In this document: positions 18,785 through 21,700 of the stretch, one piece after another
Layout: each line of letters begins with the position of its first letter
Position numbering within the stretch: position 1 is the first letter of the stretch
Source: Chiloscyllium plagiosum
Taxonomy: Eukaryota
Direction: 5' to 3'
NCBI RefSeq assembly: GCF_004010195.1
Contig: NC_057749.1
Coordinates: 12,970,137-13,030,796 of the forward strand
DNA length: 60,660 bases
Notes under the pieces: generated by a model
What the model saw: the letters and a program-made list of their open reading frames with translations, nothing else
Told to the model about the DNA's origin: nothing
Database searches by the model: none
Program-made: the position numbers and the translations under genes

Positions 18785-21700
18785 CTGTAAGAAAAACAAA
18801 GTGATTCAATCCTCAAGCTACAGAAGAATCTATTCAACTGATAGTTCAAAGCTCTATACTCAACTATTCCATCCATTAAATGTGCCGTTAAGACAGAGAA
18901 TGCTAATGTTGAGCTCTTCCAATTTGACAGATGATGGGAATGAGGGGTTAACTTTATACTGAAAGGAAGGTGATAGATGCCCTGTGCAGCACTCCTTGGC
19001 AGTGCTCATTACTGGAATACATTGTTAATGCTTTCCAACAGGAGCAAGAATCTGACATTGACCAGTAAACCATCTTCATCCACCAGACCCCCAACACAAC
19101 ACCAATGTCCCTTGGGGAAGGAAATCTGCTTTCATTTCTGGTCTGGCCTGCATGTGACTCAGACCCATAGCCTCAAATTGCTCACCAACCAACAAATGCT
19201 GGTGGAATTGGTAGCAGAACCACCACAAAGCCATGATGTGCTATGAAAGTCAGCACGGTATCTCTGCAGAAAGTGAGGACTGCAGATGCTGGAAATCAGA
19301 ATCAAAGAAGCATAGATACTCTTCCCCAGACAGAGGGAGGAACACTCACTCAGAGGAGTGCACTGACTGAGGAGAAAGTGAGGTCTGCAGATGCTGGAGA
19401 TCAGAGCTGAAAATGTGTTGCTGGAAAAGCGCAGCAGGTCAGGCAGCATCCAGGGAACAGGAGAATCGACGTTTCGGGCTTATGCCCGAAACGTCGATTC
19501 TCCTGTTCCCTGGATGCTGCCTGACCTGCTGCGCTTTTCCAGCAACACATTTTCACTCCTCTGAGGAGCAGGATGAAGGAGGGCCTTTGCCTGAAACGTC
19601 AACTTTTCTGCTCCTCAGATGCTGCCTGACCTGCTATGCTTTTCCAGCACCACTCTCCAACTCTGTCTCTGGGGGACATGACTGGAACACAGTTCCCTCA
19701 CTATTGACCCACGATTTGACAGAGGATGGGAGATAAGAGTGCCCTGAGGGAAACCTCTTGCATCTTCTAGTCTCTTTTTGAGGTGATTAATTGTACATGA
19801 GACAACCAGTGAAGAACCTGGTACTGATTCTTACCGTTCCTTCAAGCAGTTTTCCAAAGACCACATGTTTCCCATCGAGCCAACTCGTCTTGGCGGTTGT
19901 GATGAAGAACTGGGAGCCATTGGTGTCTTTGCCAGCATTGGCCATGCTGACCCAACCTGAACCATAGTGTTTCAGCTTGAAGTTTTCATCGGGGAAGCGG
20001 TCACCATAGATACTCTTCCCTGGAGAGAGGGGGAGGGAGGAACACTCAGTCAGCGCACTCCCCTCACGTGGAGATGACCTTAATGATGACAGGAACCAGT
20101 GAACCCACTGTAAGTGCAGGATAGTGCTTCAGATAGGCTTTTGAAAAACACTGGGAGACAAAGTCACAGGTCACTGAAGAAAATATGTGAGGCTCTACCC
20201 CCTACCCCATCTGCCATTCTGAAGCAGGCCAACTTCATAAGGAGTATGTTTGACCCCGCAAAATTCAAAACGCAGACGGACAATCCCAGTTGTCCCAGTG
20301 CGCTCCGAGTGAAGAAAGTCAAGTTTAATCTCCGATAACATAAAATCCTGAGGCCAGTGCTTGGGGCAGCAGGAGGAACAGTCATCGTGTAGTAAAGACT
20401 ACCATCTCCCCAGACACTCACACAGCACTTTACCCACCTGCCCCACACACTTACCACCAGTGCCATCCCCACGGGTGAAGTCTCCTCCCTGGATCATAAA
20501 ACCTTTGATAACCCGGTGGAATTTGCTGTTTTTGTATCCAAATCCTTTCTGCACAGAAATTAAGACAAATTAATCAGAGGAATAACACCCCCGTGTCTGA
20601 ACCTGCAAAATTCAAAACAGACAGACAAGCTCAGTCATCCCAGTGTGCTGAGTGAAGAGTCACGTTTAATCTCCAATATCACAAAACTTGGAGGGACAGC
20701 CATCGTGTCGTAAATGAATTCAACAACTCACCTCCCCTGTAGCTAGAGCAACGAAGTTTTCAACTGTCTTTGGAACAGTTTTTCCAAAAAGCCCAATCAC
20801 GATACGGCCGGCATCCTCATCCCCAATCTTAATATCAAAATACACCTGGAAGAGGAGAATCAAACCAGAGTCAGCTCTCACTAGGCTTTGTGCACACACA
20901 CTTATAGAACAGACTCGCTGCCAGCTCGGACAGTGAGGTCTGCAGATGCTGGAGATCAGAGTTGAGTGTGTTGCTGGAAAAGCACAGCAGGTCAGGCAGT
21001 ATCCGAGGACTAGGAGAATCGACATTTTGGGCTGGAGCCGTTTGCCTACTCCAAACTGCTGGGACCTTACAGCACTGACTTTAAACTGACTTAAAACAGA
21101 CTGAATTGCGATCAGGATAAGCAAGCAGTAGAGCACACTGGCAACCAAATCTGCCTGGTTAAGGTCATAACTCAATCTGATCCTCTCCACAAGATCACCA
21201 TGAACCTTTCGTGTTCATCTCAAAGGAATACTGCTTCACATATTGCAATCTGTAAGCAGCTGTACAGTAAACACAGCCCACCCCGAGTCTGGAGGTCACT
21301 GGGTAATGTGTAGAAATTTTAGCAAACAGTGGAACAAATACACAACTGATTTAATCACATAACTATTAGCGGACAAGGAGCTGACTGGTACTATTTGCCT
21401 TAAACTCCAGCTCAATTCTGCTGCACATTTCCAGTTTACACGGGAAACTAAAACAAATCCTTCATTAAATAAATCACTGGCCAAAATCACTGCGGCTGCA
21501 GGAGCAGGGACTTGTGCAGCACCTCCAGCTGAAAGGAATCAGGGCAGAGCTTGCTAGGACATCCTGCCCTCTGTGGGTTAACAGAATTGAATCACAATAG
21601 GAAAAAAATGAGGCTGCACCTTCTGCCCATCGTTGCTCTGCTAGCCCTCCAATGGATCAACTCAACTCACCTCGTGCCACCCACCTGCCTCCTTCCACAG

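Follow-up and report, generated by a model that had tools for sequence, protein, structure and literature searches.

The SNORA79 gene and its host intron

We analyzed 60,660 nt of the genome of Chiloscyllium plagiosum (NCBI RefSeq assembly GCF_004010195.1, contig NC_057749.1, positions 12,970,137 to 13,030,796), here called the window and numbered from its first letter. On its minus strand lies the cyclophilin B gene PPIB. The third intron of that gene holds, at 20244..20388 and on the same strand, a gene of ∼145 nt for the box H/ACA small nucleolar RNA (snoRNA) SNORA79, also named ACA65, with predicted target sites for pseudouridine (Psi) at U31 and U86 of U6 RNA.

An Rfam scan of the entire window returned only one hit at gathering level, RF00600 (SNORA79), at 20387..20244 on the minus strand. 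The hit spans model positions 1-143 of 143 and scores 127.9 bits (E = 1.2e-22), with the gathering threshold at 55. The minimum free energy (MFE) fold of the element (-45.9 kcal/mol) consists of two hairpins, each with an internal loop, and leaves the pockets open; its z-score is -2.73, and 3 of 200 shuffled sequences fold equally well. The layout is that of an H/ACA RNA: a hairpin, a hinge with AGAUUA, a second hairpin, and then ACA followed by 3 nt.

Fold and element map together place each part on the minus strand. The 5′ hairpin (20333..20387), which contains the pocket for U6 U31, has the lower stem CGAUGAC/GUUAUCG (20387..20381 with 20339..20333) and the upper stem UCCUG/CAGGA. The H box AGAUUA, of the form ANANNA, is located at 20326..20331 (RNA positions 58-63). 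The 3′ hairpin (20250..20322), which contains the pocket for U6 U86, has the lower stem UUGACUU(U)/(G)GGGUCAA and the upper stems UCGGAGCGCA/UGCGUUUUGA and GGACAA/UUGUCC. The ACA box lies at 20247..20249 (RNA positions 140-142) and is followed by UAC, so that the predicted mature 3′ end falls 3 nt past ACA.

Each of these elements had been named, on the minus strand within 20388..20244, in an earlier sequence-only reading of this DNA, which identified the RNA as SNORA79/ACA65 and proposed an Rfam scan and folding as checks. Both agree with it, at a level well past chance: the match to RF00600 is full length and far above the gathering score, the pockets fit U6 U31 and U86, and the MFE fold recovers both hairpins with open pockets. 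Judged by its sequence and predicted fold, the element is SNORA79/ACA65, a new member of a known family, and it is probably functional in this animal. The same reading called the snoRNA "hidden," which overstates the matter because a routine Rfam scan detects it at once.

The minus-strand reading frames that flank the snoRNA are those of PPIB. Exon 4 (19835..20019) has its best match in the Protein Data Bank (PDB) with peptidyl-prolyl cis-trans isomerase B (1cyn_A, E = 1.4e-35), and the best match of the last exon is also a cyclophilin B chain (E = 4.4e-15). The C-terminal tail VEKPFAxAKE matches cyclophilin B as well; other cyclophilins score far lower on this tail.

We aligned contigs of four coded public runs (X1, X3, X4, and X5) to 19780..20600. 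Spliced contigs in three of the four (X3, X4, and X5) join 20018 to 20454, and the 435 letters that they skip have CT..AC ends on the plus strand, equivalent to GT/AG on the minus strand. Together with the reading frames, these contigs define exon 3 (20455..20548), exon 4, and between them an intron of 435 nt (20020..20454; GT at 20454-20453 and AG at 20021-20020). We number it intron 3 because a signal-peptide exon and one further exon stand upstream. The placement of the snoRNA in PPIB intron 3, also proposed from sequence, is thus borne out by the flanking exons and by the spliced contigs. The snoRNA is sense to PPIB and begins 66 nt past the 5′ splice site, with 224 nt remaining before the 3′ splice site.

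Complementarity to U6

We calculated the pairing of the two pockets with a U6 sequence from the same genome, in which the top-scoring U6 genes reach 116.6 bits. The copy that we used (L002, 1501-1607) has the contexts UACUAAAA-U31-UGGAACGAU and ACGCAAAU-U86-CGUGAAGCG, the same as the vertebrate contexts quoted in the sequence-only reading. Contig C25 carries at least six high-scoring U6 genes in a stretch of ∼315 kb (39.19-39.50 Mb), including the four best among the 48 U6 matches listed; the group looks like a U6 gene cluster.

The first pocket fits its target well. Its 5′ strand UGUUCC (20375..20380, minus strand, as for all pocket strands) pairs with U6 G33-G38 through five Watson-Crick pairs and one G.U pair, and its 3′ strand UUUUA (20341..20345) forms 5 bp with U6 U26-A30. 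U31/U32 is therefore flanked by 5 bp upstream and 6 bp (one G.U) downstream, at a distance of 14 nt from the H box.

In the second pocket, the 5′ strand CUUCAC (20309..20314) forms 6 bp with U6 G88-G93, downstream of U86/C87, and the 3′ strand AUUUUGCG (20257..20264) pairs with U6 upstream of U86, 15 nt from the ACA box. A perfect complement would require one U fewer in this 3′ strand. Upstream pairing can take one of two registers: four contiguous pairs (AUUU), or a U.U mismatch adjoining U86 and then six pairs (UUUGCG). The spacings of 14 and 15 nt that had been proposed, inside the 14-16 nt expected of SNORA79, and the pairing at U31, are therefore as described, whereas the clean 7-bp helix at U86 is not found.

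Human SNORA79 is listed with U6-Psi31 and Psi86 as its targets and with pairing of 5+6 and 5+7 (table in PMC1636440), and a review table assigns both U6 sites to ACA65 (PMC7960923). The copy in the window resembles the human RNA in its full-length match to RF00600, its architecture, its boxes, both predicted U6 targets, and the 5+6 pairing of the 5′ pocket. Its second pocket is weaker than the published human one. Compared with the Rfam consensus, it has U at one 3′-pocket position where the consensus has a weakly conserved "a," a change that lowers the upstream pairing from the published seven pairs to four contiguous pairs, or to six after a mismatch.

A similar pairing has been listed for a chicken RNA. 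GGgACA52, which is given as taking the role of ACA65 at U6-86, pairs 6+4 in its 3′ hairpin (Table 2 of Shao et al. 2009, PMC2653536), and this corresponds to one register of the 3′ pocket described here. Only U6-86 is listed for GGgACA52, whose listed position is the opposite strand of HTR2C intron 1. It appears there under "functional homologs" and is thus a counterpart by function, not by shown sequence orthology.

The same two targets, U6-U31/U86, are given for Xenopus tropicalis snoRA79 in the supplement of Deryusheva, Talross & Gall (2019, PMC6984369), where U6-Psi86 guide activity of frog/human SNORA79 is recorded as verified in a yeast system. The Xenopus RNA, located at chr1:130421406-130421551 (xenTro9.1), is alike in its U6 targets, and among experiments its activity on Psi86 in yeast lends the strongest support to the mechanism considered below.

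Conservation and covariation

Runs from several coded organisms contain the 145-nt RNA sequence almost without change. A contig of organism A (X1 record 3) covers 20113..20480 and has no listed change inside 20244..20388. In its flanks, 20113..20243 differs by a 3-nt deletion and nine substitutions, and 20389..20453 by a 19-nt insertion and two substitutions. A contig of organism D (X5 record 22) covers 20113..20382 and has no listed change in 20247..20382; eleven substitutions and a 2-nt insertion are found in its flank, and a 2-nt deletion occurs at 20245, after ACA. The excess of changes in the flank over the RNA is significant in each (A: 0/145 vs. 11/196, P = 0.002; D: 0/139 vs. 11/131, P = 0.0003; Fisher's tests), although the two contigs are not fully independent since four changes are common to both. 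The snoRNA is under purifying selection, with no substitution listed inside it while the flanking intron diverges.

A more distant comparison comes from a pattern scan of metagenome contigs, which found four loci: one is SNORA79 (L029, 288-433; RF00600, 77.5 bits, full model) and the other three are below the gathering score. The corresponding scan of genome contigs found 14 loci, all in prokaryotic metagenome-assembled genomes and none of them SNORA79; the pattern alone is not specific. Between L029 and the copy in the window, 34 of 34 predicted pairs are standard in both sequences, and 13 of them have changed on both sides. As a control, sliding the partners by 1-3 columns leaves 0-2 two-sided changes.

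The helices are thus kept through 13 compensatory changes, and the pocket strands are identical in the two RNAs, including UUUUGCG, and with it the extra U of the 3′ pocket, a string that was absent from the search pattern. L029 is also intronic and sense to its host, lying 46 nt past a 5′ splice site. At the position of its H box (340..346) stands AGAGAG(A), a departure from strict ANANNA, though its Rfam score is above gathering.

Cajal body (CAB) boxes, with the consensus ugAG, are found in the apical loop of H/ACA scaRNAs (small RNAs specific to Cajal bodies), the guides of Cajal bodies. The authors of PMC6984369 reclassify snoRA79 as a scaRNA, noting in the supplement that it "contains CAB boxes." By comparison with the Xenopus RNA, an exact UGAG occurs nowhere in the copy studied here; the 5′ apical loop has CAAG and the 3′ apical loop UGGG. 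The AG of the first loop is common to this copy (CAAG), L029 (GCAG), and the Rfam consensus (uaAG).

Contigs over the snoRNA in run X3

In run X3, a contig of 148 letters spans only 20256..20381 and shows no differences from the window, and the PPIB contig of the same run is spliced across intron 3. This contig, restricted to the snoRNA, hints at a stable small RNA without proving one. Contig cover is missing from the remainder of intron 3 in X3 and, in all four runs, from 20564..20600, and we draw nothing from either.

A decayed duplicate in intron 2

PPIB intron 2 (20549..20731, minus strand) is mostly filled by a second, SNORA79-like sequence at 20591..20705, also on the minus strand, which is absent from the sequence-only reading. 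The Rfam match (20705..20591) reaches 44.7 bits, below the gathering score of 55 (E = 1.4e-6), and BLAST aligns 20594..20686 to RNA positions 44-142 of the intact copy at 81% identity. The boxes AGAUUA and ACA are retained, together with CUUCAC and AUUUUGC.

We considered this element as a second working guide and rejected it. Besides scoring below gathering, it has a 23-nt deletion in the 5′ upper stem and loop, its 3′ lower stem is mismatched, its pocket-1 strand has become UGUCCC, and its fold is not H/ACA-like, standing at the level of shuffled sequences (z-score 0.15; shuffles as good in 97 of 200). From the alignment, we read it as a decayed intragenic duplicate of SNORA79. Its 19% divergence relative to the intact copy is larger than the ∼8% flank divergence between the sampled species, which suggests that SNORA79 was resident in PPIB before those species split, with the qualification that the two rates may differ.

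Other hosts of SNORA79

The table of PMC1636440 gives human SNORA79 (ACA65) a length of 140 nt and GTF2A1 as its host, the host named in the sequence-only reading. The copy described here differs from the human one in lying in PPIB intron 3 and in having a decayed duplicate in the neighboring intron. It is also the single full SNORA79 copy found in the 3.56-Gb genome, by an RF00600 search that scored 42 of ∼692,000 first-look candidates and by BLAST; the window lies on contig C40. BLAST with the RNA over the genome returned the intact copy and one partial look-alike nearby, the element in PPIB intron 2.

Two loci are marked by the TFIIA family PF03153 (C10:7.63-7.67 Mb and C9:27.45-27.50 Mb). 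The 110 kb covering both of these TFIIA-large loci contain no gathering-level Rfam hit and no match to SNORA79 or any other H/ACA RNA at E ≤ 10. Since these GTF2A1-type loci are without SNORA79 and the sole full copy lies in PPIB, the host differs from that in human, as had been proposed for this lineage.

L029 has yet another host. Its flanks encode importin beta-1 (KPNB1; PF25574, E = 7e-10; PDB match over residues 817-876, E = 5e-26) in three C-terminal exons on the same strand as the snoRNA. In the genome studied here, the orthologous KPNB1 intron is only ∼60 nt long and empty, and 20 kb of the KPNB1 3′ region contain no SNORA79 relic at E ≤ 10. SNORA79 therefore has at least three hosts. 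The finding of KPNB1 as the third indicates that the family moves between genes, in either direction as far as these data go; PPIB as the ancestral host, a possibility raised in the sequence-only reading, is no more than that.

The KPNB1 introns of this genome also contain weak matches to box C/D RNAs, at 4482..4554 and 7313..7382 of locus L033 on the minus strand, which is the KPNB1 sense strand (snoZ221_snoR21b, 26.9 and 23.7 bits, both below gathering). Chicken KPNB1 is listed as host to U32-type box C/D snoRNAs in introns 4 and 7, and not to ACA65 (PMC2653536). The two L033 matches may be diverged U32-type snoRNAs.

A literature search, with snoDB, snOPY, and Ensembl outside it, turned up no publication that places SNORA79 in PPIB or KPNB1. 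Neither PMC8522698 nor the main text of PMC6984369 mentions SNORA79.

Other features of the window

A short repeat occurs in inverted pairs at ∼14200-14480, 19370-19640, 20900-21080, and 25170-25350. At each place the same peptide-like frame is read on both strands, including in PPIB introns 1 and 4. A run of N, perhaps an assembly gap, extends over ∼24750-24960, where frames are read as X, and is flanked by reverse-transcriptase-like frames (..FADDTKIGGVVDSEE..) at ∼24480-24740 and ∼26280-26960.

Discussion

Taken as a whole, the evidence makes it highly probable that the element in PPIB intron 3 is a functional intron-encoded box H/ACA guide, orthologous to vertebrate SNORA79/ACA65, for U31 and U86 of U6. 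For this animal we infer assembly of the ribonucleoprotein (RNP), processing, the precise termini, and catalysis on U6 along the following lines. SNORA79 would be transcribed in sense within the PPIB pre-mRNA as part of intron 3. As other intronic H/ACA RNAs suggest by analogy, the dyskerin/NHP2/NOP10 core would bind it co-transcriptionally. Again by analogy, splicing and debranching would then release the RNA, and exonucleases would trim it to ∼145 nt, ending 3 nt past ACA. The 5′ pocket would pair with U6 on both sides of U31 and the 3′ pocket on both sides of U86, setting each uridine at the base of an upper stem and 14-15 nt away from its H or ACA box. There dyskerin would convert it to pseudouridine, whether in the nucleolus or in Cajal bodies.

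Several points weigh against this interpretation. The extra U in the 3′ pocket makes activity on U86 less certain than activity on U31. Both cross-species contigs report 12 differing letters and list 11, the unlisted one lying near a contig end; that of X5 could fall within the 5′ lower stem, close to 20382. The covariation involves two sequences only, the structure is derived from the same two, and the search pattern that led to L029 fixes three of the four pocket strands. The 148-letter contig of X3 stops short of both predicted ends and shows at 20256 a loose end resembling an adapter, and parts of a gene cannot be ranked by contig depth. None of the runs is recorded as RNA, and their label as such is a guess ("RNA?" or "?" in all 20 rows). 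A pseudouridine map of this animal's U6 was not found in accessible data.

The strongest alternative accepts a stable RNA whose 5′ pocket guides Psi31 and holds that the 3′ pocket, with its extra U, is unproductive at U86, where Psi86, if present, would be made by another guide. The register that places U86 correctly offers only four contiguous pairs, and the other puts a U.U mismatch next to the target. Redundancy at this site does exist, since chicken GGgACA37 (the counterpart of ACA19), an unrelated H/ACA RNA, is also predicted for U6-86 in the table of PMC2653536. However, organisms A and D have no listed change anywhere in the 3′ hairpin, its pocket included, against diverging flanks; the distant, KPNB1-hosted L029 has the identical UUUUGCG; and the chicken ACA65 counterpart is itself listed with 6+4 pairing for U6-86 (PMC2653536), a pairing inside the range that the table gives for accepted guides. 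We regard loss of the U86 function as unlikely.

That the copy is a pseudogene or retro-copy that looks intact and makes no stable RNA appears very improbable. The RNA ends are unmapped in runs that are not recorded as RNA, and decay does happen at this locus, as the sister copy 200 nt away in intron 2 demonstrates. That same sister copy, with its 44.7 bits and z-score of 0.15, nevertheless shows by contrast what real decay looks like: the intron-3 copy scores far above gathering, has no substitution listed within the RNA for two other species, whose flanks list 11 each, and is matched in X3 by a contig limited to the snoRNA body. As it is the sole full copy in the genome, its inactivity would also leave U6 Psi31 without a SNORA79-type guide.

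Least probable of all is that the block is conserved mainly as a cis-acting element of PPIB, a regulator of splicing or expression to which the snoRNA shape is secondary. Its distance of only 66 nt to the 5′ splice site of a highly expressed gene speaks for this, and published reviews reportedly treat cis roles of intronic snoRNAs at host loci, but the same RNA family occurs in the unrelated hosts GTF2A1 (human) and KPNB1 (L029), compensatory changes keep the H/ACA helices, and what is conserved is an RNA with U6-complementary pockets rather than a PPIB context.

The history of SNORA79 hosts admits a tentative reconstruction, which we put forward as possible though doubtful. SNORA79 may be a serial host-switcher for which PPIB intron 3 is an older, possibly ancestral address in jawed vertebrates; its presence in GTF2A1 (mammal) and in KPNB1 (L029) would then reflect later relocations into housekeeping genes that emptied the former introns, and the decayed copy in intron 2 would be a trace of long residence in PPIB. 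Movement of snoRNAs between introns and genes has already been documented (PMC2653536; discussion in PMC6984369). The change of host seen here is real and illustrates this known turnover, to which it adds one more case rather than any new principle. It is a clean example: PPIB here, GTF2A1 in human, and KPNB1 in another organism, with no copy or relic at this genome's own GTF2A1 loci or in its matching KPNB1 intron.

For annotation, the locus should be recorded as SNORA79 within PPIB and the fragment in intron 2 as a pseudogene. The analysis extends the U6 guide SNORA79 to this lineage, with pockets that carry no listed change in related species. This preservation argues that Psi31 and Psi86 of U6, and the single dual guide for them, are old and strongly constrained.

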